Shown here: positions 37,906 through 53,105 of the stretch, in pieces
How positions within the stretch are numbered: position 1 is the first letter of the stretch
Layout: each line of letters opens with the position of its first letter
NCBI RefSeq assembly: GCF_965641715.1
Contig: NZ_OZ282453.1
DNA length: 64,000 bases
Source of the DNA: Escherichia coli
GTDB taxonomy: Bacteria > Pseudomonadota > Gammaproteobacteria > Enterobacterales > Enterobacteriaceae
Direction: 5' to 3' (one strand)
Notes under the pieces: generated by a model
Database searches by the model: none
Told to the model about the DNA's origin: nothing
Seen by the model: only the letters and a program-made list of their open reading frames with translations
Made by a program: the position numbers and the translations under genes

Positions 37906-39132
37906 ATGGGAATTAACGAAATCATCATGTACATCATGATGTTCTTTATGCTGATAGCTGCCGTAGACAGGATCCTGTCGCAGTTCGGCGGTTCTGCTCG
38001 TTTCCTCGGTAAGTTCGGTAAAAGTATCGAAGGATCAGGCGGTCAGTTCGAAGAAGGCTTTATGGCAATGGGCGCACTGGGCCTGGCGATGGTCGGTATG
38101 ACCGCGCTGGCACCGGTACTGGCTCACGTTCTCGGGCCGGTAATTATTCCGGTTTACGAAATGCTCGGCGCTAACCCATCGATGTTCGCCGGAACACTGC
38201 TGGCGTGCGATATGGGCGGCTTCTTCCTCGCCAAAGAGCTGGCGGGCGGCGACGTAGCCGCGTGGCTATACTCTGGGTTAATTCTCGGGTCGATGATGGG
38301 GCCAACGATTGTGTTTTCCATTCCGGTGGCGCTCGGCATTATCGAACCTTCTGACCGTCGTTATCTGGCGCTCGGCGTGCTGGCGGGCATTGTGACCATT
38401 CCGATTGGTTGTATCGCTGGTGGTCTGGTTGCTATGTACTCCGGTGTTCAGATCAACGGCCAGCCGGTGGAATTCACTTTCGCCCTGATCCTGATGAACA
38501 TGATCCCGGTGATCATTGTTGCGATTCTGGTGGCGCTGGGGCTGAAATTCATCCCAGAAAAAATGATCAACGGCTTCCAGATCTTCGCCAAATTCCTCGT
38601 TGCATTGATCACCCTCGGTCTTGCCGCTGCGGTAGTGAAATTCCTGCTTGGCTGGGAACTGATCCCCGGTCTGGATCCTATCTTTATGGCCCCTGGCGAT
38701 AAACCCGGTGAGGTGATGCGCGCCATTGAAGTTATCGGTTCTATCTCCTGCGTTCTGTTAGGGGCGTATCCGATGGTGCTGCTGCTGACCCGCTGGTTTG
38801 AAAAACCGCTGATGAGCGTCGGTAAAGTGCTGAATATGAACAACATCGCGGCAGCCGGCATGGTGGCAACGCTTGCCAACAACATCCCGATGTTCGGCAT
38901 GATGAAGCAGATGGATACCCGCGGCAAAGTCATCAACTGCGCCTTCGCCGTTTCCGCTGCTTTCGCCCTGGGCGACCACTTAGGCTTCGCCGCTGCCAAC
39001 ATGAATGCCATGATCTTCCCGATGATTGTCGGCAAGTTGATCGGCGGCGTAACGGCGATTGGCGTGGCGATGATGCTGGTGCCAAAAGACGACGCGACCG
39101 CGGCTAAAACCGAAGCGGAGGCACAATCGTGA
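37906..39132 (+). CDS. eutH: Ethanolamine permease/facilitator EutH
   Basis: 408 aa, polytopic membrane protein. Confidence 0.94.
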   Translation: MGINEIIMYIMMFFMLIAAVDRILSQFGGSARFLGKFGKSIEGSGGQFEEGFMAMGALGLAMVGMTALAPVLAHVLGPVIIPVYEMLGANPSMFAGTLLACDMGGFFLAKELAGGDVAAWLYSGLILGSMMGPTIVFSIPVALGIIEPSDRRYLALGVLAGIVTIPIGCIAGGLVAMYSGVQINGQPVEFTFALILMNMIPVIIVAILVALGLKFIPEKMINGFQIFAKFLVALITLGLAAAVVKFLLGWELIPGLDPIFMAPGDKPGEVMRAIEVIGSISCVLLGAYPMVLLLTRWFEKPLMSVGKVLNMNNIAAAGMVATLANNIPMFGMMKQMDTRGKVINCAFAVSAAFALGDHLGFAAANMNAMIFPMIVGKLIGGVTAIGVAMMLVPKDDATAAKTEAEAQS

Positions 39133-40532
39133 ACACTCGCCAGCTACTGAGCGTCGGTATCGATATCGGCACCACCACCACCCAGGTGATTTTCTCCCAC
39201 CTGGAACTGGTTAACCGTGCGGCGGTGTCGCAGGTGCCGCGCTACGAATTCATCAAACGCGAAATTAGCTGGCAAAGCCCGGTGTTCTTTACCCCTGTCG
39301 ATAAACAGGGTGGTTTAAAAGAAGCGGAACTGAAATCGCTGATTTTAGAGCAATATCAGGCTGCGGGCATTGCGCCGGAAAGCGTTGATTCTGGTGCCAT
39401 CATCATCACCGGTGAAAGCGCGAAAACCCGCAATGCTCGCCCGGCGGTGATGGCGCTCTCTCAGTCGCTGGGCGATTTTGTCGTCGCCAGCGCCGGGCCG
39501 CACCTCGAATCCGTGATCGCCGGTCACGGTGCCGGGGCGCAAACCCTTTCTGAACAACGGCTGTGTCGGGTACTGAATATCGACATCGGCGGTGGCACCG
39601 CGAACTACGCCCTGTTCGATGCCGGAAAAATCAGCGGCACTGCCTGCCTCAACGTCGGTGGTCGCCTGCTGGAAACCGACAGCCAGGGGCGCGTGGTTTA
39701 CGCTCATAAACCGGGGCAGATGATTGTGGATGAGTGCTTCGGCGCAGGCACCGATGCCCGTTCGCTGACCGGCGCGCAGCTGGTGCAGGTTACCCGGCGG
39801 ATGGCAGAGCTGATTGTCGAAGTGATTGACGGAACGCTTTCGCCGCTCGCGCAGGCATTAATGCAAACCGGTTTGCTGCCCGCAGGTGTTACGCCCGAAA
39901 TCATTACGCTTTCTGGCGGCGTGGGCGAATGTTATCGCCACCAGCCCGCCGACCCGTTCTGTTTTGCCGATATTGGCCCGCTTCTGGCAACGGCGCTGCA
40001 TGACCATCCGCGCCTGCGTGAGATGAACGTGCAGTTTCCGGCGCAAACCGTGCGCGCCACGGTGATTGGTGCGGGTGCACATACCCTTTCGCTCTCTGGC
40101 AGCACAATCTGGCTGGAGGGCGTACAACTGCCGCTGCGCAATTTGCCGGTGGCGATCCCAATTGATGAAACGGATCTGGTGGGTGCCTGGCAACAGGCGC
40201 TGATTCAGCTGGATCTTGATCCCAAAACTGACGCGTACGTGCTGGCGCTTCCCGCCTCGCTGCCTGTGCGTTACGCCGCGGTACTGACGGTCATCAACGC
40301 GTTGGTCGATTTCGTCGCGCGTTTTCCGAATCCGAATCCCCTGCTGGTGGTGGCCGGGCAGGACTTTGGTAAAGCTCTGGGCATGTTGTTGCGCCCACAG
40401 CTACAACAACTCCCGTTGGCAGTCATTGACGAAGTGATTGTCCGCGCGGGGGACTATATCGACATTGGTACGCCTCTTTTTGGCGGATCGGTTGTGCCGG
40501 TGACGGTGAAATCACTCGCATTTCCTTCCTGA
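39129..40532 (+). CDS. eutA: Ethanolamine ammonia-lyase reactivase EutA
   Basis: 467 aa; the TGA stop (40530-40532) lies inside the att core of the island. Confidence 0.94.
   Translation: MNTRQLLSVGIDIGTTTTQVIFSHLELVNRAAVSQVPRYEFIKREISWQSPVFFTPVDKQGGLKEAELKSLILEQYQAAGIAPESVDSGAIIITGESAKTRNARPAVMALSQSLGDFVVASAGPHLESVIAGHGAGAQTLSEQRLCRVLNIDIGGGTANYALFDAGKISGTACLNVGGRLLETDSQGRVVYAHKPGQMIVDECFGAGTDARSLTGAQLVQVTRRMAELIVEVIDGTLSPLAQALMQTGLLPAGVTPEIITLSGGVGECYRHQPADPFCFADIGPLLATALHDHPRLREMNVQFPAQTVRATVIGAGAHTLSLSGSTIWLEGVQLPLRNLPVAIPIDETDLVGAWQQALIQLDLDPKTDAYVLALPASLPVRYAAVLTVINALVDFVARFPNPNPLLVVAGQDFGKALGMLLRPQLQQLPLAVIDEVIVRAGDYIDIGTPLFGGSVVPVTVKSLAFPS
40511..40532. repeat. attL (bacterial arm + 8-bp core CTTCCTGA)
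   Basis: atcactcgcatttccttcctga. The core at 40525-40532 is repeated at 51725-51732, and atcact is also shared. Confidence 0.7.
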
Positions 40533-41380: not shown

Positions 41381-41404
41381 AAAAAACCCAGCGCTATGGC
41401 TGGG
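41381..41404 (-). terminator. Terminator after the XRE-HTH gene
   Basis: Minus strand reads cccagc-catagc-gctggg followed by TTTTTT. Confidence 0.8.
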
Positions 41405-41437
41405 CTTCGTTTAATGAGATGGGATTGAAAGCGGGTT

Positions 41438-42220
41438 TTATTTATCTCCCAGATTGTATTCCCAGTTGGGAAGTAAAGTTATCAGCTTGTCACCTTTCTT
41501 GCCTTTGCCGATCTGGTTGCCGTTCTCGTCTTTCTTGTGTGTGATTTCCTGGTCAACCTTAATCAATCCTCTCTCTTTGGCTTGCTCAATCAGTCGGTAG
41601 AATGCGCCGTTACTAATCGGCTTCCGGTTACCGTCGTTATCCATCGCAGTGATTTTCTGTTGCAGTCCGGCGTTATTGCCCAGGTATTCGCCACCTAACG
41701 CCGCCAGTACCTGACACAACATGCCGACACTGTATTTTTTCGGATTTGGGTTAATCCATTCTTTAGCTCCCATCTCTTTTTTGTCGTTGGGCGCTTGTTC
41801 TGCTGCTACTGCGTTCACCTTTTCATCTCCCATCTTGTTACCGCTTGCTGTGCGCTTAATTTCTTCCAGTTCTCTCTCAAGCTCACCTATACGTAATTCA
41901 CGCTCGATAATTACCCCGCGCAGCACATCATCATCACCGTGAGGGCTTGCCTGAATCCAGTTACCATTGGCGAGCGGTAGGAGGGCATAAATTCCGAACA
42001 GGTCACAAAGCGCGGCAAGTGTATTAAAATCAGGTTCCCGGCGTCCCTCCATCCAGTGGCTAACAGCGCCTTTTGTGACTGGTTCGCCTTTCTTGCTTTT
42101 AACACCCATGCGATCCAGTGCGGCGGCTATCTCTTCGCATTTAATGCCACGACCGCCAGCATAGCCCGCCGCTTTCGCGGCCCCTTTGAGGATGTCGTGA
42201 ATTTTCATTTCGTAACTCAT
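41438..42220 (-). CDS. XRE/cI-type HTH protein with coiled-coil linker and C-terminal putative winged-helix domain (260 aa)
   Basis: ORF 41438-42235. Start moved to MSYEMKIHDILKGAAKAAG, where the GGGAGA RBS is 8 nt upstream. The segment GIKCEEIAAALDRMGV...TKGAVSHWMEGRREPDFNTLAALCDLFG matches the HTH_XRE pattern. Confidence 0.7.
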   Translation of the reverse strand: MSYEMKIHDILKGAAKAAGYAGGRGIKCEEIAAALDRMGVKSKKGEPVTKGAVSHWMEGRREPDFNTLAALCDLFGIYALLPLANGNWIQASPHGDDDVLRGVIIERELRIGELERELEEIKRTASGNKMGDEKVNAVAAEQAPNDKKEMGAKEWINPNPKKYSVGMLCQVLAALGGEYLGNNAGLQQKITAMDNDGNRKPISNGAFYRLIEQAKERGLIKVDQEITHKKDENGNQIGKGKKGDKLITLLPNWEYNLGDK

Positions 42221-42230
42221 AATTTTATCT

Positions 42231-42258
42231 CCCATCTCATGAACTATGGTGGGAGATT
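42231..42258. promoter_or_regulatory. 28-bp box copy 1 (CCCATCTCAT-N9-TGGGAGATT), overlapping the RBS of the HTH gene
   Basis: Near-identical box at 42939-42966. ATCTCCCA (42227-42234) and TGGGAGAT (42250-42257) form a perfect 8-bp inverted repeat. Confidence 0.5.
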
Positions 42259-42315
42259 AACACGGCGGGCCTGTGGCGGGTAAGTGTAACGGGAGAGAAT
42301 GTTGATTCAGGTCAC

Positions 42316-42337
42316 AAAAACCCGGCGCGGGGCCGGG
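42316..42337 (-). terminator. Terminator after the 158-aa gene
   Basis: aaaaacccggcgcggggccggg is identical over 21 nt to the terminator at 40628-40648. Confidence 0.8.
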
Positions 42338-42359
42338 CTGTGTTAGTACGTCGTTGCTC

Positions 42360-42836
42360 TTAGTTCATGAGGAGATCTTTAAATTCGACGCCGTATTCAT
42401 GGGCAATGTCGCCTCTATAGTAGATGTTATCTTTCAGGATATATCCGACGTTTCTCAGGACGTGAGAACACTCTCTTACTGCTGCCTCTTTACCCCTTAA
42501 AACATCCTCCCCGCTAACTTCTTCGCCGCTGTACTTCACTGCGATGTTGTCTGCTGCACGCTCTGCTGCTTCCAGGCAATTAATCTTCACTTTTCCCCGA
42601 TTCTCCCAGGCAAAATCGCGGCCATAAATCCCCATTGCATCAACCATCTTTTGCGCAGTAGTGCGCTCATCCACCCATTCAGTGCGTTCGAACTTCTCGC
42701 CAGCAGCTACCCTTGCCGCCAGTTGTTCGTGTTGAGTCTGTACGGCCGCAGCCTCTTCTTCCCATTTGCCTTGCTCGTTGTATACGATGAAGCCAGTGAT
42801 GACTGCAGCGATTAGTAACTTGTCCAGAAAATTCAT
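42360..42836 (-). CDS. Membrane-anchored (N-terminal TM) protein of unknown function, 158 aa
   Basis: Strong RBS AGGAGGA 6 nt before the ATG. MNFLDKLLIAAVITGFIVY signal-anchor, then a soluble domain with two Cys. Confidence 0.7.
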   Translation of the reverse strand: MNFLDKLLIAAVITGFIVYNEQGKWEEEAAAVQTQHEQLAARVAAGEKFERTEWVDERTTAQKMVDAMGIYGRDFAWENRGKVKINCLEAAERAADNIAVKYSGEEVSGEDVLRGKEAAVRECSHVLRNVGYILKDNIYYRGDIAHEYGVEFKDLLMN

Positions 42837-42938
42837 AGCTTCCTCCTATCTGTTCAATTACCCGGCATCTCTTGCCGTTGAACGTATTAAACAAAATGCC
42901 AGTCAGGGATAAAGCGATCTGCGTCATAAAGTCCATCC

Positions 42939-42966
42939 CCCATCTCATTGATATTGATGGGAGATT
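42939..42966. promoter_or_regulatory. 28-bp box copy 2, about 100 nt upstream of the 158-aa gene
   Basis: CCCATCTCAT-tgatattga-TGGGAGATT. On the minus strand it overlaps a candidate promoter, CTGACC-N18-CAATAT. Confidence 0.45.
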
Positions 42967-43041
42967 GTTTAATTGGTCAGAAATTAAGCGTTTATGTGCG
43001 CTGCCGGGTATCCACCTCCTATCTGAAGATGGAAAGATGGG

Positions 43042-43123
43042 TGATATAATGTGATGGCAATTGGTGGATTGCGTGGTTTTTACAATGATAAGGGGCTGGC
43101 GTAATGCTGGCCCCTTTGTTTAT
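43042..43123 (+). ncRNA. Candidate ~65-nt plus-strand sRNA (promoter through terminator)
   Basis: Perfect extended -10 TGaTATAAT at 43042-43050. First hairpin gcaat-N6-attgc at 43057-43072. An 11-bp terminator stem at 43090-43116 has two G-U pairs, so it only folds well on the plus-strand RNA. It is followed by TTTGTTTAT. Confidence 0.4.
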
Positions 43124-43162
43124 CCGGTATCCGGTATCCGGTATAAGCGGGCGTGTATCCGG
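43120..43162. repeat. Internal cluster of TATCCGG/GTATCCGG repeats
   Basis: tTATCCGGTATCCGGTATCCGG (three tandem 7-mers) plus gtatccgg at 43155-43162. The segment cgtgtatccggtagcgggga resembles ctgtgtatccggtcggggtga at the left end. Confidence 0.6.
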
Positions 43163-43356
43163 TAGCGGGGATATGGGCGCGTGTACGTGAAATCTGGCAA
43201 ATTAGCAGGGTAATTGTGAGGGAATTTTTGCGTAGGAGCGTTTGTGGCTGGTAGCTCAAAATTGAGCTTTGCTTTTCATTCAATGACTTAGGTTAATTCT
43301 AGCAAAACGCTAGGATTGAATGTCCGCCAGTCTGCTTCCCCTAGCGTGGGATTTGG

Positions 43357-45723
43357 TCAACGTCTGCGCGGCTGCAAAATTCCTCCGGGTCGTTGTGATT
43401 CACGCTGCATCAGTCGCATCGCTGTGTTTTCTATGGTCTGCTGCAGCGCTTTTGAGTCTTCCTCTGTCCAGCCGTTGTTAGCCTGGATGTTGAACGTATT
43501 GTTCATCGTGATTCCGCCACCGCCTACCAGATCGCGGCCCGGTGTAACTCGTCCACCTTCACCCGGGATCATGTACTGTTTCCCGCCAGTGGATGTAAAT
43601 AGCTCCGGTACTCCGTGCTCCCCGACCCTATAAAGATTGCCACCGTTAACAGCCCCGCCGTTGTAACGAGCGCCAGCCAGTCCAAGCGTTTTGGCGGCAG
43701 CTACGCCAGTAGTAAGCCCGGTAAGTCCAGTGGCCCCAGCGCCGCCCATCGTGGCTACGTTAGCCAGGTATGCAGGAGTGGCCCACGCCGATCCTAATGC
43801 TGTAGCCTCTGCTAGTGCTTTAGCTGTTGCGGCTGCGTTTGCGGCTTCACCAATTAGCTGCTGTTTAACCCACTCAGCACCCATCTGGACAATGCCACCG
43901 ACCACAGAAGACAGGATCGTACTGCCAACGTTGGCAAGTGACTCTTGCAGCGATTGAGTACCGTTTATCAGTCCGGTAAATGCGCTGCCAGCGCCAGACG
44001 ATAACCCATCGACCATATTCCCGATGAGGCCATTTATATCGCTTTGTTTCTTCCACTGCTGCCACTGGAGATCCAGAACCCTTTGTTCATGTGCGATCTC
44101 TTCCTGGCGCAACTGCTCTTCGGTAGCCCCAAGATCTAGAAGCATTTGCTTGCGAACAGCCCATTCATTTTGGATCTTCTGTATTGGGTCAATCTGAGCT
44201 TTCTGCTTATCCTGCTCACTGACAAGACTGTCCCATTTCGCTTTCTGCTTGCGGATGGCTTCAGCTTCATCAATTGCTGCGAGTGTACTTGCTCGCTGTT
44301 TCGCGCTGATCAACCGTTTCTGCTCAGCCGCTTCCAGGTCTTCTACTGCTTTTTTCCGTTTATTGAGCGCCGCTAGTTCGGGATCGTATTTTTCCACCAA
44401 TGAAAGGCCGCTTGCTTCCTTACGTTCGCGTTCTCTTTGTGCCTGTTTGGCTGCCTGCTTAGCGGCGTTTTCTGCTTGTTTGGCTGCTCTTTCTTTCGCC
44501 CTGGTGTTCTCTTCTTCCTTGCGCTTATTCTCTTCTAACTCCTTGTTTTGTTCGCGTAATTTAACGATTTCCTCATGATGCGCCTTTGTCAGCTGGCCTT
44601 CTTTCAGTGCCCGATCTATATCAGCGTTTGCGTTGCCTTTTAGCTGTTCCTGTTTAACTTGCAGATGTTTAATCATCATTTCGCCAGTGGCAATCGCTGC
44701 CGCAGACGCTCCAGCATTCAGAGCTTCATTTAACGCTCTCTGACGTTCTTCTGCTGTTAATGCCTCGTTGCTGTATCGAAGTAGCGCATCAACGTATTTC
44801 TCCAGTTCTGCGCGGCCTGCCGCAGTTGCTGGTTCCATTGCTTTTAGGATGCTCAGAAGGCTTTGCGCTTCATAGGAAGACGGGTTTTTGCGGAACTGCG
44901 CCATAGCGTTATAAAGCGCCATAGCTTCACCCTCTGTGATTCTGTACTTAGCTCCCAGCCCTTCAATGACCGCTGATAACTGTTTGCCAAGCGCTGCACC
45001 GAATGCGCCTTCCTTGCTTAATTTGTTGAGCACTTCACTCAGTGAATTTCCTGACACGCCCAGCGCGTCGAGTTCTCTTGCTACCGTTCCCAGGTCGCCG
45101 CCTTTCATCCATCCTGCATTAGAAAATTCAGTGATAGCCCGGCCCGCTTCCCGCGTTTCTTCCTGGAGTGTTTTTAGCGCCCGCACGGCCTGCTCTTTCA
45201 TTACGGCGGCGGCAATGGCGTTGTTCTGTGTGGCTTCGTAATATGAATCACTGAAAGCGTTAACGCCCTGGGTGGATTTGCCGATCACGGCGTCGATTGA
45301 TGCTAATGCCTCCTTCATCCTTTCAGCGCTATCCGTTGCGTCGTCCATGCTGTCCGTTAGGCTGTTGGCAATCGCCCCGCCAATAGCCATCACCGCCCCC
45401 ATGACCGCACCGCCAGTACCGAAGGCAGCGGCAAGTTGTGCACCCTGCACAGCGAACGCCTGGAGCGCATTACCGCCCATCTGCAATTGAGTGGCAAGGT
45501 CTGCGATCTGGTATGATGCGTTACGGATTGCCGGGGAAAGGTTGGTTTTGACTGCGGCAGACGTTTTGGTCATCTGCGTGTTCAGTTTTTTGACGCCACT
45601 GTCAGCGCGTTTTGCGCCGCGTTCTATACTGTCAAAAGCCTGGTCCGCTTCTTGTTGTGCTGCCAGGAGTTTACCAGTACGGGCGTCGACCTCATAGTAT
45701 ATGGTCCCAAGATTCCCACTCAT
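43357..45723 (-). CDS. Phage tail tape-measure protein, lambda gpH-like, 788 aa, apparently full length
   Basis: The N-terminal YQIADLATQLQMGG segment, the long E/K/A/Q coiled-coil core, and the Gly-rich hydrophobic C-terminal region ending GG..YRVGEHGVPELF ... NNTFNIQANNG match my memory of gpH domain order. Confidence 0.8.
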   Translation of the reverse strand: MSGNLGTIYYEVDARTGKLLAAQQEADQAFDSIERGAKRADSGVKKLNTQMTKTSAAVKTNLSPAIRNASYQIADLATQLQMGGNALQAFAVQGAQLAAAFGTGGAVMGAVMAIGGAIANSLTDSMDDATDSAERMKEALASIDAVIGKSTQGVNAFSDSYYEATQNNAIAAAVMKEQAVRALKTLQEETREAGRAITEFSNAGWMKGGDLGTVARELDALGVSGNSLSEVLNKLSKEGAFGAALGKQLSAVIEGLGAKYRITEGEAMALYNAMAQFRKNPSSYEAQSLLSILKAMEPATAAGRAELEKYVDALLRYSNEALTAEERQRALNEALNAGASAAAIATGEMMIKHLQVKQEQLKGNANADIDRALKEGQLTKAHHEEIVKLREQNKELEENKRKEEENTRAKERAAKQAENAAKQAAKQAQRERERKEASGLSLVEKYDPELAALNKRKKAVEDLEAAEQKRLISAKQRASTLAAIDEAEAIRKQKAKWDSLVSEQDKQKAQIDPIQKIQNEWAVRKQMLLDLGATEEQLRQEEIAHEQRVLDLQWQQWKKQSDINGLIGNMVDGLSSGAGSAFTGLINGTQSLQESLANVGSTILSSVVGGIVQMGAEWVKQQLIGEAANAAATAKALAEATALGSAWATPAYLANVATMGGAGATGLTGLTTGVAAAKTLGLAGARYNGGAVNGGNLYRVGEHGVPELFTSTGGKQYMIPGEGGRVTPGRDLVGGGGITMNNTFNIQANNGWTEEDSKALQQTIENTAMRLMQRESQRPGGILQPRRR

Positions 45724-46012
45724 AATATCTTTATCCGCGTTGTGCGGACACCTCCGATTATTCTTTACTCTAATAATTTCACAATGAAACAGTTTATTGC
45801 CGCTTCAGTGGCTTCGTGTTCCGGTTTGCTTCGATCAATCACAAAAAATACAGCTTAATAGAATCAATGGCTTATAAAGTTGTATTAGCTATGTTTCTTC
45901 GTCCGTGCCACTGAAAACCCAGTTTTTCCAATGGAATCAATACTGATATGTATCCATACTGTTTTTCACATAATGTACGTTATGCGCACTACGGGAAACG
46001 TACTGAATTTAT

Positions 46013-46243
46013 TTACTGGTCGCCGTTCAGTTCATGCAGAGTCTGTTCTGGCAATGAATCCAGCCAGTTTTCTGCATCCTCCCTGTAACACTCCAGGATG
46101 CAACGGTTTGTGAAGTTGATGAAAGCGGTCAGTGATTCTGCTTCGTCGTTCCTGTGCGTTCTCCTGGCGTGCTTGCGTAGTCGTTTCGCGTCTGCCAGTT
46201 GGTCATTGAGTATCTTCAGTCTGTCGGCAATATCATCGTTCAT
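46013..46243 (-). CDS. Hypothetical 76-aa helical protein
   Basis: GGGAGAG RBS 5 nt upstream of the ATG; protein-like charged helical composition; no family recognised. Confidence 0.55.
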   Translation of the reverse strand: MNDDIADRLKILNDQLADAKRLRKHARRTHRNDEAESLTAFINFTNRCILECYREDAENWLDSLPEQTLHELNGDQ

Positions 46244-46378
46244 GTCGTCTCTCCCTCGCGCGCGCGTCGTACTTGTCCGAAAATTACCCCCATAAAAGCG
46301 CCCCTCATATAGTGCAAAATCCCGGCTGACGCGGATCTCAGTGGGTTTTAGCAGTGAAAACTGACATCAAAAACGGCT

Positions 46379-46426
46379 CGCTAAGGTCCGCTAAGTATCC
46401 GCTATCGTTCGCTAACCCCCCGCTAA
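46379..46426. repeat. Five phased CGCTAA (minus strand TTAGCG) direct repeats
   Basis: Copies start at 46379, 46389, 46400 (CGCTAT), 46410 and 46421. The spacings of 10, 11, 10 and 11 bp equal one helical turn. Confidence 0.85.
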
Positions 46427-46430
46427 CCTA

Positions 46431-46796
46431 TTAGATATCGCATCCAACGCTATTGAGCTGGCTATGTATATCGGCGCGAATTAACTTCAGGCGTTTACAA
46501 AATTCGCGTTCTTCCGAATTAAGCTCGCGGCCACCTTGTTTCGAGGCAATGAGCTTGTTGATGGTGGAAAGCGAATATTCACTCCATATACGAAGCATTT
46601 GTCGCTTCATTGGTTGCTCGCTCAATGGTGAGTTTTTCAGGTCTGACACGCGCTCTGCGACGGTTCTTGCGATGCCTTGTACCACTCGTAGTGCCAACAT
46701 GATGATTTTCTCCGGACTTGTGCTAATATAGTTCCCGAACATTGTTTCGAGACTGCTTATCCTGTTTGTCTTGTCCGATTTGTTCATTGGTCGCAT
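46431..46796 (-). CDS. Hypothetical 121-aa protein
   Basis: ORF with protein-like composition (…IIMLALRVVQGIARTVAERVSDL…) but no obvious SD. A hairpin lies just upstream, and the stop abuts the CGCTAA array. Confidence 0.5.
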   Translation of the reverse strand: MRPMNKSDKTNRISSLETMFGNYISTSPEKIIMLALRVVQGIARTVAERVSDLKNSPLSEQPMKRQMLRIWSEYSLSTINKLIASKQGGRELNSEEREFCKRLKLIRADIHSQLNSVGCDI

Positions 46797-46838
46797 TGTT
46801 AAGTCAGCCGGGGTAATTCCCGGCTTTCTTTTATCCGA

Positions 46839-47381
46839 TCAGTACCGAATCCCTATCGCATTGAATACGCGTTTCCGTTGCTCAGCTTCAGGATCGGCGG
46901 CCATTTCTGGTTCTGGCTCCGGCATAGACGGGGCGGCATCAAAATGCTCAATTTCACGACCGAAATACGAGTTCAGGTCAATACCTGCCGAACTATCCAC
47001 TCCATCAAAATAGCGACGCTGTTCCTCGGTGAGACAGCTACCCAGACGTTCCTCAACCTGCGCCATAAACTCAGCATCCGGTGAGAAGTACTCATCCGGA
47101 GTCGGAGCACCGCTCTGTTTGTGCATCTCCATTTTCTCTGCGTTCGTTTTCAGCCCGGCAATGCGTTTCTCCAGTCCGGCGGCTTTAATAGCGTCAGCAA
47201 CGATTTGTGGGATCTGCGGTTTAATTATTTCGATAACTTCATTGCTGATTAATTTAAACTGGGCCATACGGATCGCTTTAATCTGCTTATTTAACAGTGC
47301 GCGTTCCCCTTCGTTGGCGGTTTTATCACGCTGTGCTACCAGTTCATCGCCTTTGTTTGTCAGTACATCAAATGCGTCCAT
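46839..47381 (-). CDS. Hypothetical 180-aa protein with acidic, Pro-rich C-terminal part
   Basis: Strong RBS GGAGGAGG; starts 17 nt after the stop of the 108-aa ORF. Confidence 0.65.
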   Translation of the reverse strand: MDAFDVLTNKGDELVAQRDKTANEGERALLNKQIKAIRMAQFKLISNEVIEIIKPQIPQIVADAIKAAGLEKRIAGLKTNAEKMEMHKQSGAPTPDEYFSPDAEFMAQVEERLGSCLTEEQRRYFDGVDSSAGIDLNSYFGREIEHFDAAPSMPEPEPEMAADPEAEQRKRVFNAIGIRY

Positions 47382-47398
47382 TGTCTTTCCTCCTCCGA

Positions 47399-47725
47399 TT
47401 ATTTAAAAGTGCTTATTGACACGCCGAAACGACGACTTAATTCAAAAAGGAGTCGCGCCTTTGCAGTGCCTTCCATGTCTTCCGGCATTTCAGACTGAAG
47501 TTTATCAGCTACTTCATCAACAAGTGGCCGAACCGTTTCCACGAACTTGTCCGCAATATAATCAGCAGAACGCATCACTTTTTCCTGGAATTCCTCACGG
47601 CGTACCTGGGCGGCTGATTTAGGGGCTGTCGTGCGCTGAAAATAACTGTCTAATGAATGCATGGCATCTGCTCCTTTTACTTTGATTGCTGTTATTTCTT
47701 TAATTGTGTTTGCTTTGATTTTCAT
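47399..47725 (-). CDS. Hypothetical 108-aa protein
   Basis: AAGGA RBS; first gene downstream of alpA in the same orientation. Confidence 0.55.
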   Translation of the reverse strand: MKIKANTIKEITAIKVKGADAMHSLDSYFQRTTAPKSAAQVRREEFQEKVMRSADYIADKFVETVRPLVDEVADKLQSEMPEDMEGTAKARLLFELSRRFGVSISTFK

Positions 47726-47801
47726 GCTGCCTATTCCTTCAGAAATTGCGGTAGTTTGCTTTTTAAATCAATAAGTTATTTGATAATCTCAGTAGCTGTT
47801 T

Positions 47802-47993
47802 TCATTGGTGGCGAGCGCCTTTGTTTTTATAGAATTCCAAAATCTCAGATCGGATAAACTTAATTCTTGAGCCAATCGGACTGACCGGGACGGGCCAGCC
47901 TTTAATCTTGTTCATCCACCGGAATATTGTCCGACGGGTAACGCCGAATAAAGCTGCTACCTCGTTAACCGTCATTAATTCGCTATCATTCAT
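47802..47993 (-). CDS. AlpA-family (Phage_AlpA/HTH_17) transcriptional regulator / excisionase-like protein, 63 aa
   Basis: LMTVNEVAALFGVTRRTIFRWMNKIKGWPVPVSPIGSRIKFIRSEILEF is the typical AlpA/MerR-like HTH. GAGGTGAG RBS. Confidence 0.85.
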   Translation of the reverse strand: MNDSELMTVNEVAALFGVTRRTIFRWMNKIKGWPVPVSPIGSRIKFIRSEILEFYKNKGARHQ

Positions 47994-47996
47994 GTT

Positions 47997-48046
47997 CTCA
48001 CCTCAAAAAGTAGCGGTGAGGAAAATATGGAGAAAACCCTCACCGC
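47997..48046 (-). promoter_or_regulatory. Terminator-like leader hairpin immediately upstream of alpA; one arm duplicates the SD
   Basis: mRNA sense: GCGGTGAGG-N16-CCTCACCGC (9-bp perfect stem), then UACUUUUU, then GAGGUGAG (SD), then AAC-AUG. The 3' arm can also pair with the SD (CUCACC/GGUGAG). Confidence 0.55.
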
Positions 48047-48090
48047 GCCCTGAATGAAATTAAAGACCAACATTACTGTTGATACTTATT

Positions 48091-48096
48091 ATTATA
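48091..48096 (-). promoter_or_regulatory. Candidate -10 (perfect TATAAT) for the alpA operon
   Basis: Minus strand reads ggaaTATAATaa, about 95 nt upstream of the alpA ATG. The -35 is weak (ATGTGA). Confidence 0.3.
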
Positions 48097-48185
48097 TTCC
48101 TCCTGTCCCTGTTTCACATCTTTTACCATATAGTGAAAGGGGATATTCTGTAATGTTTACAAAACTTTTAATTAGCAAAAAATAA

Positions 48186-48306
48186 TTGCGCATCTCACGT
48201 AATGCAGGGATAATATTACTCAAGGGCTGGTTGCCCTTACTCAAAATGTGATCTATAACTACAACGATCTATTTCACTTCCCCGCTTTCTCCGGCGGGAT
48301 TTTTTT
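48186..48306 (+). ncRNA. Candidate ~85-nt plus-strand sRNA (promoter through terminator)
   Basis: TTGCGC-N17-GATAAT at 48186-48214. 5' hairpin aagggc-tggtt-gccctt at 48222-48238. 3' hairpin cccgc-N8-gcggg followed by a run of seven T at 48300-48306. Confidence 0.3.
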
Positions 48307-49118
48307 GCCTGCAATCTGGCACCATTGCGCACATTAAAATTAGATGCCATTTAAAAGCGATATAACGCGTTCTGCCGGGCTTAATTTTGGCTATCCACTT
48401 GGAAGGGTAAGCCTGTTTTGATTCGTCTGGCGTGGAATGGTGCGGCGGTAATATCAGATCTCAGCGTTCTGCGTGGTGGGATGAAATAGCCTGGCAGGAT
48501 TTGCGTGTGGTTTGCTCTCCCAAAAAATGGGGTAATGGCGCTGGCTGGATGGCAGGACTCCGCGCTGATTACTGGATGGCTGAAAATTTAATGAAATCGC
48601 ATCAATTTTAATGCGTCTAAATCGCTCTGTGGCGACGTGAAGTTTTCAGGTAAGCAAGTGTAGCTGTGTGGTGTGTTCATCGCGTTACTGGCACCATTCC
48701 GTTCGAATTTGGCGCTATCAGGATGGTTTGCGGTGGTCGGCGGCGGGGATAAACTTGCTTGAGTGGTCACCTCAGCCTGCTGTGCGTCGTGTGATGGTAC
48801 TGTCTGCACCTGGCTATACGCTGCTTTGCTGCTGTTTCCTGTCTGGTCTGTATACGCGATAAAACCCATCGGCTTTACAGTGAGTGAGTTTTTTGCGCTT
48901 TGCTTTCCATTCGGTTTGCTTACTGCTGCTGTGTGTCTGTGCGGTAGCTCAGAAAGCTGTCGATGATAACCATCACTGCCAGACCGTCTTTTGAGCTGGC
49001 GATTGCTCGAAGTCTTCCGAAGGTCCGCTGGGCTTGTTGCTTGTTTGTGTTCTTTTAAAATGCGCGCCTCTTACTTTCTCTTAAAAAGAAAAAAGGAATA
49101 TACAGATCTCATACTATG

Positions 49119-49273
49119 TGTGTCCCAAATGTCACACGTCATGGCCTGACCTGTATCCCAAATGTCACACGTCACCCTCTGACCTGTATCCCAAATGTCA
49201 CACGTACCTGTGTCCCAAATGTCACACGTCTATTGTTAATTAATTGTTGACCTGTGTCTCAAATGTCACACGT
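49119..49273. repeat. Five direct 21-bp iterons TGTRTCCCAAATGTCACACGT (putative ori)
   Basis: Copies at 49119-49139, 49152-49172, 49185-49205, 49209-49229 and 49253-49273 (one mismatch). Start spacings are 33, 33, 24 and 44 bp. Four copies are preceded by (G)ACCTG. An AT-rich tract with AGATCT lies at 49081-49110. Confidence 0.85.
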
Positions 49274-49290
49274 CTGTTGATGGTTTAAGT

Positions 49291-49338: not shown

Positions 49339-50103
49339 TTATCTTGCGTTCTCGACCTGAAAAAGCATTCTGTATTTTCTTGCGTGCTGACCAATAACAT
49401 ATTCCCCGTATGGCTCAATGAGTCCTAACTCAACCAGGATTTTCATCTGGCGAATTACGGTGCGGCGATTCATGCCCCATTCATCAGCTATTTTTGCCTG
49501 GCAAACTTCAGATACATAAGATCCATCATTCTGCTTTCTTGCTGCTGATGCAATGCTGGATAATACGCTCCAGGCTGTAGCTTTAGCTTTATTCTCGCAA
49601 CCACTTCTGACAAATGCCTTACGTGCCGCACCCAAACAGACATAACTGCAATAAATTCCTTTTTCTTCCGTTTGGTATTGTGTCTCTTTATCCTGCATGG
49701 CTTCCGGTTCTTCCGGCGCTTCCTGCTGTGGTGCTGTCTGCGAAGTTTTAGCGGCCATACTGCGTAGCTCGTTCACGATATCAGTAGCTGATTTCTTCTC
49801 GCTTTTAGTTTCCTGCGTGACTGATAAATACTCACCTTGTAACGCCAGGAAGTCAGCGCGGGCGTTTGCCTGGCTTTGTTCTGGTGATTCAGGTTCTGCA
49901 TCGGCAGGTGATGAAATCGGTGATACACGCGCCCAGCCTGTTTTGGCGTTGCATTCCCAGCGATAACCATTAAAGCGGATATCATTCAGGCCATCATCAA
50001 TGGCGCTCCGTACTTCTTCCGGGATCGCGTCGATTTTCTGAAGGCTGTGTTTACCGAGTGATTCGCCTTGCCGTGGGGCGTAGGCGGTTGGTAAAATATT
50101 CAT
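49339..50103 (-). CDS. Putative iteron-binding replication initiator / winged-helix DNA-binding protein, 254 aa
   Basis: AAGGAGAA RBS. The C-terminal segment IADEWGMNRRTVIRQMKILVELGLIEP is a wHTH-like motif. A long acidic Q/E/P-rich linker is present. The gene is directly followed by a terminator and the iteron array. No primase or helicase motifs. Confidence 0.55.
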   Translation of the reverse strand: MNILPTAYAPRQGESLGKHSLQKIDAIPEEVRSAIDDGLNDIRFNGYRWECNAKTGWARVSPISSPADAEPESPEQSQANARADFLALQGEYLSVTQETKSEKKSATDIVNELRSMAAKTSQTAPQQEAPEEPEAMQDKETQYQTEEKGIYCSYVCLGAARKAFVRSGCENKAKATAWSVLSSIASAARKQNDGSYVSEVCQAKIADEWGMNRRTVIRQMKILVELGLIEPYGEYVIGQHARKYRMLFQVENAR

Positions 50104-50349: not shown

Positions 50350-51555
50350 TCACGGCTCCAGCGGATTACCGCCACCAGCCAATATCTGGTCGATGGCGTC
50401 GCTGTAGTCCTGCATCATGGCCCGCCGTTGCTTCAGATAGGCCGCCTGGTTATAAACGCCGCGCACACCTTTCGGAACGTGGGCCAGTTGGATTTCGATC
50501 CAGTCTGGTGAGTATCTGCCGTACTCGTTAAGTGCGGTTGAAAAGGTGGTTCGCCAGCCGTGACCAGTGGCTATCGACTTGTATCCGATACGCTCCAGGG
50601 CTTTAAGGATGGCACTGGCTGAAAGTGGCTTATCCATGAATCGACCAGGGAACACAAAAGCACTGTATCCGCTGCGGGTAAACTGGTCCTGTAATAGCTC
50701 GACCGCCTGCCGGGATAGCGGGACCACATGCGGGCGGCGGGCCTTCATGACTTCAGCGGGTAGGGTGATGGTTGCCGATTCCAGATCTACCCACTCCCAG
50801 CGCATTAAACGCAGTTCTGCGGTCCTTAGGGCGCTTAATATAAGCAAACGTATTGCCGTCTGAATCTGAACGCTCCCGGCTCTCTCAAGGGCTTTGTAGA
50901 AGGCCGGGATTTCGTTAATTTGTATCCATGCGTTATGGCCTGGGCGTCGGGCTTTCAATGCCGTGTCCAGATCTGCAACCGGATTTCGGTTAACCAGTTC
51001 AGTGATAACGGCAAATTTGAAGATTTCCCCTATACGCTGCCGTAATTTTCGGGCCTGTTCCGGCGCGGTGCGCTCTTTCTTCTGAAGCAATGCCAGCACG
51101 TCACGGGCCGTTATATCGACAATCGACCGCTTGCCAAGTACCGGATAAACATCTTTCTCCAGTGCCGATCTAACTTGTTTCGTGTAAGACTCAGACCAAC
51201 CGCTCACTCTGGTAGCAAACCAGTCTTCCGCTACCGTCTTAAAACTTGCCGCCATGTTGAGCGCATCAATGGCTTTCTCCTTGCGCGCTTCTTCCATTGG
51301 GTCAATTCCCTGGGCGATGAGTAAACGGCTCTCTGTGGCGCGTTTACGTGCTTCCTTCAAGGTAATCAGCGGATATACCCCAATAGCCTGTAACCGCTCT
51401 TTCTTGTCTATCCAGTACCGGAATCGCCAGTATTTGCTGCCATTGGGATGTACCAGCAAGAACAGGCCAGGTGTCTGTGAATCGGTGAGTTTGTAGGGCT
51501 TGTCCTTCGGCTGGGCGGCCTCTATGCCCTTTGCTGTCAGTGGTGTCTTGCTCAA
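50350..51555 (-). CDS. P4-family tyrosine integrase (N-terminal arm-binding DUF4102-type domain), 401 aa; occupies the position of K-12 intZ
   Basis: TTG start with a GAGGT RBS. KPYKLTDSQTPGLFLLVHPNGSKYWRFRY is the typical P4-integrase N-terminus. C-terminal catalytic residues are present: ...HGWRTTFST...LAHV...GVYNQAAY. Confidence 0.9.
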   Translation of the reverse strand: MSKTPLTAKGIEAAQPKDKPYKLTDSQTPGLFLLVHPNGSKYWRFRYWIDKKERLQAIGVYPLITLKEARKRATESRLLIAQGIDPMEEARKEKAIDALNMAASFKTVAEDWFATRVSGWSESYTKQVRSALEKDVYPVLGKRSIVDITARDVLALLQKKERTAPEQARKLRQRIGEIFKFAVITELVNRNPVADLDTALKARRPGHNAWIQINEIPAFYKALERAGSVQIQTAIRLLILSALRTAELRLMRWEWVDLESATITLPAEVMKARRPHVVPLSRQAVELLQDQFTRSGYSAFVFPGRFMDKPLSASAILKALERIGYKSIATGHGWRTTFSTALNEYGRYSPDWIEIQLAHVPKGVRGVYNQAAYLKQRRAMMQDYSDAIDQILAGGGNPLEP

Positions 51556-51604: not shown

Positions 51605-51717
51605 CGCGTTCGGTTGCGTTCGGCAGGATAAGTAACGGGCGTATTAAGTGGAACACCTTACAGGACAAGGGATAACGATGAAATAGAATTGTTCGAATGC
51701 TGTGAAAAATGTTACTC

Positions 51718-51732
51718 ATCACTTCTTCCTGA
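51718..51732. repeat. attR (element-borne imperfect copy of the eutA 3' end)
   Basis: atcacttcttcctga, followed directly by gggaacgacttATG of eutB, the expected uninterrupted eutA-eutB junction. Confidence 0.7.
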
Positions 51733-51743
51733 GGGAACGACTT

Positions 51744-53105
51744 ATGAAACTAAAGACCACATTGTTCGGCAATGTATATCAGTTTAAGGATGTAAAAGAG
51801 GTGCTGGCTAAAGCCAACGAACTGCGTTCGGGGGATGTGCTGGCGGGCGTCGCAGCGGCAAGCTCACAGGAGCGCGTGGCGGCAAAGCAGGTGTTGTCGG
51901 AAATGACCGTAGCGGACATCCGCAATAATCCGGTGATTGCCTATGAAGATGACTGCGTGACGCGGCTGATTCAGGACGATGTTAACGAAACGGCCTACAA
52001 CCAGATTAAAAACTGGAGCATCAGCGAACTGCGTGAGTATGTGCTGAGCGATGAAACCAGCGTGGACGACATTGCCTTTACCCGCAAAGGGCTGACCTCG
52101 GAAGTGGTCGCGGCGGTAGCGAAGATTTGCTCCAACGCGGACCTGATCTACGGCGCGAAGAAAATGCCGGTAATCAAAAAGGCCAATACCACCATCGGTA
52201 TTCCGGGCACCTTTAGCGCCCGTTTGCAGCCAAATGACACCCGTGACGACGTGCAAAGTATCGCCGCGCAAATCTACGAAGGGCTTTCCTTCGGGGTGGG
52301 CGATGCGGTGATCGGCGTCAACCCGGTAACTGACGATGTGGAAAACTTAAGCCGCGTGCTGGATACCATTTATGGCGTGATCGACAAATTCAACATCCCA
52401 ACTCAGGGCTGCGTACTGGCGCACGTCACCACCCAGATCGAAGCGATTCGTCGCGGCGCGCCTGGCGGACTGATTTTCCAGAGTATCTGTGGCAGCGAAA
52501 AAGGGCTGAAAGAGTTTGGCGTGGAACTGGCGATGCTCGACGAAGCGCGCGCAGTGGGCGCAGAGTTCAACCGTATCGCCGGGGAAAACTGCCTCTACTT
52601 CGAAACCGGACAAGGCTCTGCGCTATCCGCTGGCGCTAACTTCGGCGCTGACCAGGTGACGATGGAAGCACGTAACTATGGGCTGGCGCGTCATTACGAT
52701 CCGTTTATCGTCAACACCGTGGTCGGTTTTATTGGGCCGGAGTATCTCTACAACGACCGCCAGATTATCCGTGCTGGCTTAGAAGATCACTTTATGGGCA
52801 AGCTGAGCGGCATCTCTATGGGCTGTGACTGCTGTTACACCAACCACGCTGACGCTGACCAGAACCTCAACGAAAACCTGATGATCCTGCTCGCCACCGC
52901 AGGCTGCAACTACATCATGGGGATGCCGTTGGGCGATGACATCATGCTCAACTACCAGACCACCGCCTTCCACGACACTGCCACTGTGCGTCAGTTACTC
53001 AACCTGCGCCCGTCACCGGAGTTTGAACGCTGGCTGGAAAGCATGGGCATTATGGCAAACGGTCGCCTGACCAAACGGGCGGGCGATCCGTCACTGTTCT
53101 TCTGA
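51744..53105 (+). CDS. eutB: Ethanolamine ammonia-lyase large subunit
   Basis: ORF track starts at 51702, inside the island. The true start is MKLKTTLFGNVYQFKDVKEVLAKANE at 51744, 453 aa. Confidence 0.95.
   Translation: MKLKTTLFGNVYQFKDVKEVLAKANELRSGDVLAGVAAASSQERVAAKQVLSEMTVADIRNNPVIAYEDDCVTRLIQDDVNETAYNQIKNWSISELREYVLSDETSVDDIAFTRKGLTSEVVAAVAKICSNADLIYGAKKMPVIKKANTTIGIPGTFSARLQPNDTRDDVQSIAAQIYEGLSFGVGDAVIGVNPVTDDVENLSRVLDTIYGVIDKFNIPTQGCVLAHVTTQIEAIRRGAPGGLIFQSICGSEKGLKEFGVELAMLDEARAVGAEFNRIAGENCLYFETGQGSALSAGANFGADQVTMEARNYGLARHYDPFIVNTVVGFIGPEYLYNDRQIIRAGLEDHFMGKLSGISMGCDCCYTNHADADQNLNENLMILLATAGCNYIMGMPLGDDIMLNYQTTAFHDTATVRQLLNLRPSPEFERWLESMGIMANGRLTKRAGDPSLFF

Follow-up and report, generated by a model that had tools for sequence, protein, structure and literature searches.

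Between eutA and eutB, the 64-kb stretch of Escherichia coli DNA analysed here (64,000 nt of contig NZ_OZ282453.1, assembly GCF_965641715.1; hereafter the window) carries an integrative island of the CPZ-55 type, and within it a short leader separates a predicted promoter from the gene for a 63-amino-acid (aa), AlpA-like helix-turn-helix (HTH) protein. We propose, with moderate confidence, that the main hairpin of this leader and the U-run behind it form a promoter-proximal, non-canonical intrinsic terminator that gates the HTH gene and about 6.7 kb of genes downstream of it. We read the leader in this way because a GC-rich stem and a U-run stand at a fixed distance from the promoter, right before the Shine–Dalgarno (SD) sequence. 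Coordinates throughout are those of the window, the leader is read on the minus strand, and the window's own version of it is called allele A.

A terminator-like hairpin between promoter and start codon

The elements named in the initial annotation of this region (a perfect −10 hexamer, a 9-bp stem with a 16-nt loop, TAC-T5, an SD sequence, AAC and ATG) are all present on the minus strand at the positions given there. The −10 hexamer, TATAAT, occupies 48096-48091, and its spacing places the predicted transcription start near 48084; 17 bp upstream lies a −35 hexamer, ATGTGA (48114-48119), with three of six matches to TTGACA. About 44 nt separate TATAAT from the 5′ arm of the main hairpin (GCGGTGAGG, 48046-48038), which a repeat finder scores as 100% complementary to the 3′ arm (CCTCACCGC, 48021-48013). 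An extra pair, G48037·U48022, lengthens the stem to 10 bp (GCGGUGAGGG/UCCUCACCGC, with this one G·U) and leaves a 14-nt loop devoid of G. The hairpin as a whole (48013-48046) has eight G-C pairs among its 10 bp and a predicted stability of −18.2 kcal/mol. It is preceded in minimum-free-energy (MFE) folds by a smaller hairpin 1 (48066-48083; core CAACA-GUAA-UGUUG) and followed by UAC and a U5 tract (48005-48012), the predicted termination zone, with predicted 3′ ends at about 48004-48008. Next come the SD sequence GAGGUGAG (47997-48004; GAGGTGAG in minus-strand letters), AAC, and the ATG (47993-47991) that opens the 63-codon open reading frame (ORF; 47993-47802).

The main hairpin with its T5 is not a chance feature of the window. 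A search of both strands of all 64 kb for perfect 9-bp inverted repeats, loop 3–20 nt, with T5 within 10 nt gave a single case, the main hairpin; 40 dinucleotide shuffles gave a mean of 0.025 such patterns and a maximum of one. The same hairpin is central to the leader's MFE fold, for which the whole-leader z-score is −2.73, with 4 of 200 shuffles folding equally well.

Under the proposed mechanism, a σ70 promoter (ATGTGA-17-TATAAT) would start a transcript some 90 nt ahead of the coding sequence, and this transcript would fold first into the small 5′ hairpin, then into the GC-rich main hairpin, with UAC-U5 after it. Most transcripts would end at about 48005, giving a short leader RNA of roughly 80 nt, and only those that read through would carry the SD sequence, the 63-aa HTH gene and the ~6.7 kb of downstream genes. 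Expression would then equal promoter activity multiplied by read-through, with no need for the hairpin and the SD sequence to refold: in the read-through mRNA the main hairpin would remain folded and the SD sequence would be largely free. We infer from architecture and conservation that termination occurs at the leader, as we do its efficiency and any modulation of it. The leader appears to head a gene string of about 6.7 kb, probably an operon, because there is no canonical minus-strand terminator before the one at 41408-41383, the next after the leader; none was found by the scan of the interval between the two.

Six leader alleles with one geometry

Relatives were drawn from complete genomes, metagenomes and read assemblies, and their leaders, all in E. 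coli or Shigella islands, fall into six alleles (A–F) that precede either the 63-aa gene or an analogous small HTH gene; loci are cited below by numbers with the prefix L. Allele A (GCGGTGAGGG-N14/15-TCCTCACCGC, then TAC-T5/6) is unrelated in sequence to alleles B–F and shares their geometry. Allele B consists of CCGCCTCCAGG-N28-30-CCTGGGGGCGG followed by T(T/C)C-T5. The arms of allele B recur in allele D, which has N27 and then CATC-T4 and stands in an O157 island before a different, unannotated HTH gene. Allele C, from an island next to rssA, pairs CCGCTAGG or CCACCAG with CCTGGTGG and continues with CGATC-T8. Allele E reads CCGCCCC..GGGGCGG, then CTTC-T6, and allele F, before a MerR-type HTH gene, reads CCGCCCCAGG-N23/24-CCTGGGGCGG, then CTTA-T6/7.

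What the alleles have in common is a layout. The −10 hexamer is TATAAT or TAAAAT in every promoter-bearing allele, and the −35 position reads GTGTGA, ATGTCA or TTGTCA in alleles other than A. A 17-bp spacing between the two is kept while the spacer sequence differs, and for this reason we regard the promoter as real. The 5′ arm starts 40–44 nt past the −10 hexamer; stems measure 7–11 bp; loops are 14 nt long in allele A and 23–36 nt in the others, and contain 0–8% G. In every allele a run of T4–T8 follows the stem, the SD sequence (GAGGUG(A/G) or GAGGUA) begins 0–8 nt past the U-run, and the ATG lies 19–27 nt past the stem. All promoter-bearing alleles have, in addition, a smaller hairpin between the start site and the main one, and changes in this hairpin 1 have been compensatory: L070 has C-G in place of U-A, L007 has G-C in place of G·U, and one pair passes from A-U through G·U to G-C across L082 and L083.

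A covariance model built from alleles B–F alone recovers the type A leader at full length (47991-48102, minus strand; 20–28 bits). In the covariance alignment (A3), which was fitted to the model structure and holds only a handful of independent events, 96.2% of cells are paired, as against 37–52% when the partner is slid, 11 of 17 pairs are changed on both sides, and none of 500 shuffles reaches the observed pairing values. The independent events in the main hairpin are the replacement of A versus the rest, U·G in allele B to C-G in E, this same pair gone from both arms in F, and U·G to A-U in C; the three changes in hairpin 1 count as further events. One-base insertions and deletions are common both in the loop and after the U-run, and leave leader ORFs in all three frames relative to the gene; because they shift the frame so freely, the leader is, on the alignments, non-coding, with selection acting on RNA structure rather than on coding.

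An identical 63-aa protein (P0020) follows leader B in L075 and leader A in L076, at 3001-3192 in both. Promoter and leader are thus an exchangeable cassette with breakpoints near the −35 hexamer and at the ribosome-binding site (RBS), and these natural swaps before one and the same protein provide testable material. A dispersed-repeat origin of the hairpins was discarded, both modules being single-copy in each genome that has them. In allele C a Phage_AlpA-type gene ends just ahead of the hairpin and U8, and the SD sequence of the HTH gene follows them, which leaves no room for a promoter; expression of the downstream gene must therefore come from read-through there.

How well the leader fits an intrinsic terminator

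The stem itself is GC-rich and within the range of about 5–12 bp usual for intrinsic terminators. Several properties weigh against termination nonetheless. The loops, at 14 nt in the window and 23–36 nt elsewhere, exceed the 3–8 nt of a typical terminator, and a built-in terminator scan with that loop limit made no call at the hairpin. Across the alleles 2–5 nt intervene between the stem and the main U-run, and allele D has only four consecutive U. A rough score of the d'Aubenton-Carafa type, which mis-scored one control and is taken only qualitatively, is negative for all alleles; −ΔG per nucleotide is 0.19–0.49 versus 0.64–0.69 for control terminators, and tail scores are 0.8–3.7 versus 4.3–4.7 for good controls. 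To these may be added the few independent events behind the covariation, the narrowness of the leader family, which is confined to E. coli and Shigella, and the position of the U-run beside a purine-rich SD sequence, where it could serve translation instead. Scans of genome, viral and metagenome collections for wider homologues yielded nothing beyond close copies in E. coli and distant HTH genes of a generic kind, and a promoter-motif scan of viral contigs returned a single chance match, in a giant-virus metagenome-assembled genome. If the hairpin does terminate, it is probably weak or factor-assisted, because of its large loops, the low −ΔG per nucleotide and the gap between stem and U-run.

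These shortcomings as a terminator by classical measures are also what a post-transcriptional element of the 5′ untranslated region (UTR) would lead one to expect, one that protects the mRNA 5′ end, insulates the RBS, or acts as a U-rich enhancer or through fourU-like pairing of the U-run with the SD sequence. We regard such an element as unlikely, if far from negligible. The U-run stands 0–8 nt from the SD sequence in all alleles, and in several of them it is predicted to pair with the SD region, for instance as UACUU:AGGUG in allele A and, in allele F, through 10 pairs that include four G·U; in allele A, however, this helix adds only about −1 kcal/mol. A GC-rich stem with a U-run directly behind it, which all six alleles keep at a constant distance from their promoter, is the signature of an intrinsic terminator, and a 5′-end stabiliser would make little sense in allele C, where the module lies between two genes. 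Should the hairpin not terminate, the leader would be an ordinary structured 5′ UTR.

Terminated transcripts could also matter in their own right, as a trans-acting small RNA (sRNA) of about 80–100 nt for which read-through into the HTH gene would be secondary. The layout resembles that of Hfq-type sRNAs, with two hairpins, a single-stranded A/U-rich stretch and a U-tail; the loops of alleles A–D are pyrimidine-rich and anti-SD-like; and a sub-threshold match to the LhrC family, with its CU-rich loops and terminator, spans 48006-48100. That match is at chance level, however (26.6 bits with a gathering score of 110; E = 0.23), as is one to STnc430 (25.4 of 47 bits), and no match in the whole window reaches its gathering score in Rfam 15. 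Loop composition is not kept either, alleles E and F being A/U-rich rather than CU-rich; the alleles share no evident seed, and no target was identified. We consider a primary role as an sRNA improbable. As a separate observation, the chance-level match to this Listeria RNA covers the full LhrC model on the minus strand; it opens in the predicted start region and closes with the U-run, so that its coordinates agree with those of the predicted terminated leader RNA.

The initial annotation had offered a different switch. In it the 3′ arm would have two possible partners, the 5′ arm, giving a terminator and a free SD sequence, and the SD sequence itself, which would be sequestered; the choice between them would constitute the induction checkpoint of the island. 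The complementarity on which it drew is genuine: CUCACC of the 3′ arm can form 6 bp with GGUGAG of the SD sequence, the MFE fold contains this helix once the 5′ arm is blocked, and alleles B and C have an arm that is partly SD-complementary (CCGCCUC:GAGGUGG, with one G·U, and CCACC:GGUGG). Energetically the choice is lopsided, at −9.2 kcal/mol for the helix of 3′ arm and SD versus −18.2 kcal/mol for the hairpin; the 5′ arm is transcribed first, and the alternative appears only when that arm is blocked artificially, no upstream competitor for it having been found. In alleles B and C, moreover, the SD-matching arm is the 5′ one, which amounts to a different topology. When the arms are shuffled at constant composition, 5.4% of trials give a 6-nt RBS match (P = 0.054 for allele A); P is 0.16–0.44 for alleles B–D, and alleles E and F, with the SD sequence GAGGUAAC, have no such complementarity. 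The near-identity of 5′ arm and SD sequence is thus real in allele A but, compared across alleles, not a conserved design feature, and the leader has no competing conserved fold of comparable stability such as an attenuator or riboswitch would possess. Refolding of this kind is very unlikely. The broader idea that the leader is a control point fares better, since a promoter followed by a conserved terminator-like hairpin and U-run makes a gate plausible; it is the SD switch that we set aside.

A perfect 9-bp inverted repeat beside the gene for a DNA-binding protein might instead work at the level of DNA, either as a cruciform or as an operator that the HTH protein or a different one would bind. 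We give this little credence. The hairpin is not a sequence-specific site for the 63-aa protein, because the identical protein follows the unrelated leaders A and B. In addition, the spacing of the arms varies from 14 to 36 bp, T opposite G is tolerated and resolved as it would be in RNA, and the island holds no other exact copy of the arm motif. Least credible of all is a leader peptide whose TGA stop overlaps the ATG of the gene (ATGA) and whose translation opens the hairpin and couples to the HTH gene, for while a 27-codon ORF (MLVFNF...) does run from 48073 through the hairpin to a TGA at that ATG, with an analogous ORF in some B alleles, close variants place the ATG-initiated frame in all three registers through 1-nt indels, the frame closes after 7 or 15 codons in alleles E and F, there is no SD sequence ahead of the leader ATG, purine-poor loops are expected to hold open frames anyway, and the alleles share no fixed-frame ORF with a usable start, ORF length ranging from 7 to 47 codons.

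If the terminator reading is correct, the cause of its relief, for which a helper phage, the HTH protein itself, NusA and other host factors are candidates, would tell whether induction proceeds through promoter activation, antitermination or the two together.

Other features of the leader region

Upstream of the promoter, at about −52 to −37, lies the element CACTATATGGTAAAAG (48120-48135), an imperfect palindrome around ATATGG; alleles A, B, E and F share it in the form (C/T)ATATGG(T/C)(A/C)AAA, with differing flanks. It is probably a binding site for a regulator, activator or repressor, of the leader promoter. Promoter, probable operator and structured, terminator-like leader would together make a compact control region that all transcription of the operon must pass.

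The MFE fold also pairs a leader segment, GUCUUUAAUUUCAUUCA (48050-48067), with the start codon and codons 1–8, AUGAAUGA...AAUUAAUGAC (47971-47993, minus strand); type A variants are identical across this segment. The long-range pairing would enclose the hairpin and the SD sequence and could mask the AUG, for which the predicted probability of being unpaired is about 0.38.

Further upstream, a block of about 135 nt (48177-48312, considered on both strands) recurs in L002-L007, L070-L079, L083 and L084; it is kept across leader alleles, even in the O157 island, and has no Rfam match. It contains an invariant hairpin, CCCGC-N8-GCGGG, which on the plus strand looks like a strong intrinsic terminator (48281-48305, then T7), and an internal hairpin whose arms come in four complementary versions (AAGGGC/GCCCTT, GAGGAT/ATCCTC, AACACTA/TAGTGTT and GAGGGT/ACCCTC). 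A promoter-like site lies at 48156-48183 on the plus strand. The block may encode a divergent small RNA, some 115 nt long, or it may be a set of variable palindromic operators. Kissing of the leader loop UUUCUCC with the upstream hairpin loop GGAGAAA was considered and rejected, the upstream loop differing in L083 and L084 with no compensating change. Trans-pairing of RNA from the block with the leader was searched for in both orientations, and neither gave a consistent signal.

The 63-aa HTH gene and its relatives

The gene behind the leader (47802-47993, minus strand) had initially been called alpA. We find it to be AlpA-like rather than an AlpA orthologue, as judged from profile and pairwise searches. 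Its best Pfam match is HTH_17 (PF12728; 7e-9), there is no match to Phage_AlpA (PF05930) at E ≤ 0.01, PHROGs assigns it to phrog_66, ‘excisionase and transcriptional regulator’ (1.7e-9), and in NCBIfam it matches a generic excisionase domain alone, below the cut-off. BLASTP aligns only 12 residues with K-12 AlpA, and 34 residues, at 21% identity, with the AlpA-type protein of the type C island. An AlphaFold2 (AF2) model (predicted local distance difference test, pLDDT, 82) resembles BldC, RacA, the RdfS excisionase, Pukovnik Xis and terminase DNA-binding domains with template-modelling (TM) scores of ~0.6–0.66; the modelled fold is the MerR/excisionase winged HTH, generic for that superfamily. 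The protein family comprises 39 clusters, all from E. coli and at least 74% identical, and NCBI labels some relatives ‘AlpA family’.

The rssA-side island has a separate gene of the Phage_AlpA type directly after int and then a homologue of the 63-aa protein, so that in one island type the two kinds of gene coexist. This rssA/ychJ island (L064-L069, 2706-3189) is present on more than 800 contigs, with 66 aa in the Phage_AlpA-type protein and 62 aa in the HTH homologue; the latter gene is often unannotated in RefSeq, an HNH endonuclease gene comes next, and the hairpin and U8 lie between the two small genes. In the O157:H7 island (L007, 3355-3531) an unannotated HTH ORF of 58 codons (MKAITLEQFAAMANISTRTLRRWL...) lies between the type D leader and an HNH gene; its relatives occur in Shigella flexneri and match Pfam MerR. 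We also asked if the leader is a general feature of true alpA genes, and rejected this: only 44 nt precede alpA in K-12 CP4-57, and the type C alpA is without a comparable hairpin.

Island setting

The island spans about 11 kb between eutA (39129-40532) and eutB (51702-53105), and every gene in it is on the minus strand. First come intZ (50350-51555) and the gene for a 254-aa HTH protein with weak matches to replication-initiator PHROGs (49339-50103). Just downstream of the latter are five iterons of ~22–24 nt, ACGTGTGACATTTGGGA(C/T)ACAGGT (49139-49290, minus strand), and this cluster is a probable origin of replication. In CPZ-55 of K-12 the equivalent place (L080, 4453-4540) holds another iteron set, GGTGGGTCAAAAGTTGCCGTTAA, in four copies. 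Between the part with the 254-aa HTH gene and the iterons and the 63-aa gene lie 1.35 kb with no annotated gene. The co-oriented genes 3′ of the 63-aa gene (41383-47801, minus strand) comprise four unknown ORFs, a tape-measure homologue, an HTH protein and an anti-repressor-like protein. The tape-measure homologue (43357-45723, minus strand) is full-length (phrog_1538; E = 8e-112), in an island otherwise devoid of recognisable tail or head genes.

The insertion site is that of the K-12 cryptic prophage CPZ-55, whose K-12 copy has lost the leader region; transcriptome and 3′-end maps of K-12 are for that reason unusable for the leader. About 140–170 of 5426 complete E. coli genomes carry the region, one copy each. 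The element is a CPZ-55-type integrative island, and the P4-like or phage-inducible chromosomal island (PICI) setting first assumed for it is not demonstrated; the true alpA genes examined (K-12 CP4-57 and type C) are without a comparable leader. A Gram-negative PICI would carry int, alpA and pri-rep genes in one direction, together with genes for packaging interference. The island has int, the AlpA-like HTH gene, the 254-aa HTH protein with its weak replication-initiator matches, and the iterons; relatives of the island carry HNH and Sf6-type small-terminase genes, and no gene for a primase or primase-replicase is present in the island. The literature searched holds no description of these eut-inserted islands.

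Comparison with known systems

Terminator-type leaders are a known kind of element; what sets this one apart is the combination of very large, G-poor loops with a fixed geometry. The E. coli ampC attenuator, one of the simple promoter-proximal attenuators that have no alternative structures, damps expression through a hairpin and U-run placed between promoter and SD sequence, with no antiterminator fold. The island leader differs from it in its larger loop, its second, conserved 5′ hairpin and its setting in a mobile island.

The lambdoid PR′/tR′/6S RNA/Q system resembles the proposed gate in that transcription from its promoter ends early in a short leader RNA and a long operon of late type is reached only by read-through. 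The island hairpin differs in its unusually large loop, and there is no sequence likeness to λ PR′ beyond chance (P = 0.5–0.8). Mimicry of λ PR′ and its Q-loading region was accordingly abandoned: both have ATGGG(T)TAATT at comparable offsets, and the alignment is no better than those of shuffles. Alleles B–F have an invariant TATCACATGGG after the −10 hexamer, which, seen as a pause element of the Q type, is without the A2/T6 hexamer. Profile annotation of the island proteins revealed no homologue of Q or of another antiterminator, and an antitermination factor may be encoded by a helper. That a processive antiterminator, from a helper phage or from the island, is loaded at the promoter or the initially transcribed region (CACTATATGG...TATCA(C/A)) and lets polymerase pass the hairpin is a speculative extension to which we assign a small chance. 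Were it true, such a gate would tie the HTH, packaging-type and tail-type genes of the island to the lytic programme of the helper, and would answer how this satellite-like island family senses its helper.

Phage P4 immunity resembles the proposed gate in that a satellite-type element silences its main operon by termination in the leader. The P4 leader, from PLE, uses pairing between repeated complementary sequences, the CI RNA with seqA and seqC, whereas no such complementary partner was found for the island leader, which has no Rfam match.

Along with the lambdoid system, PalpB-tB of Pseudomonas aeruginosa comes nearest in architecture; in both, modified polymerase reads the operon. In Pseudomonas an intrinsic terminator of low strength lies between the promoter and the first gene of the operon (PMC7969949; PMC9371919), and this leader terminator, tB, needs NusA (PMC9371919). 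The AlpA of that system is Q-like, exceeds 140 aa and forms a ring in the RNA exit channel, unlike the 63-aa winged-HTH protein of the island, and a transfer of its antiterminator mechanism by homology was rejected on the ground that the Pseudomonas protein is a different, larger one. The initially transcribed region of the island has, furthermore, no evident −10-like pause element with A2/T6. The promoter spacer contains GGGACA (48110-48116, minus strand; about −25 to −20), and at the ~−25 position of the Pseudomonas AlpA binding element GGGACG, allele A has GGGAC and allele B GGGAAA, with nothing comparable in alleles E and F; the likeness of GGGACA to GGGACG at this position is probably a coincidence.

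With the AlpA/Vis/TorI-type regulators and excisionases of P4-like elements and Gram-negative PICIs (PMC6092414) the 63-aa protein shares its small size, its winged HTH, its location near an integrase gene and its place at the head of the main operon. It differs from them in that it does not reach Phage_AlpA and coexists with a true AlpA-type gene in one island type. The literature searched contains no report that links induction of a satellite alpA to termination. AlpA acts as the master activator of PICIs and is itself induced by the helper phage (PMC6092414). How helper phages switch the master regulators of Gram-negative satellites is still unexplained (PMC6092414; PMC11773190), and the leader described here offers a test case.

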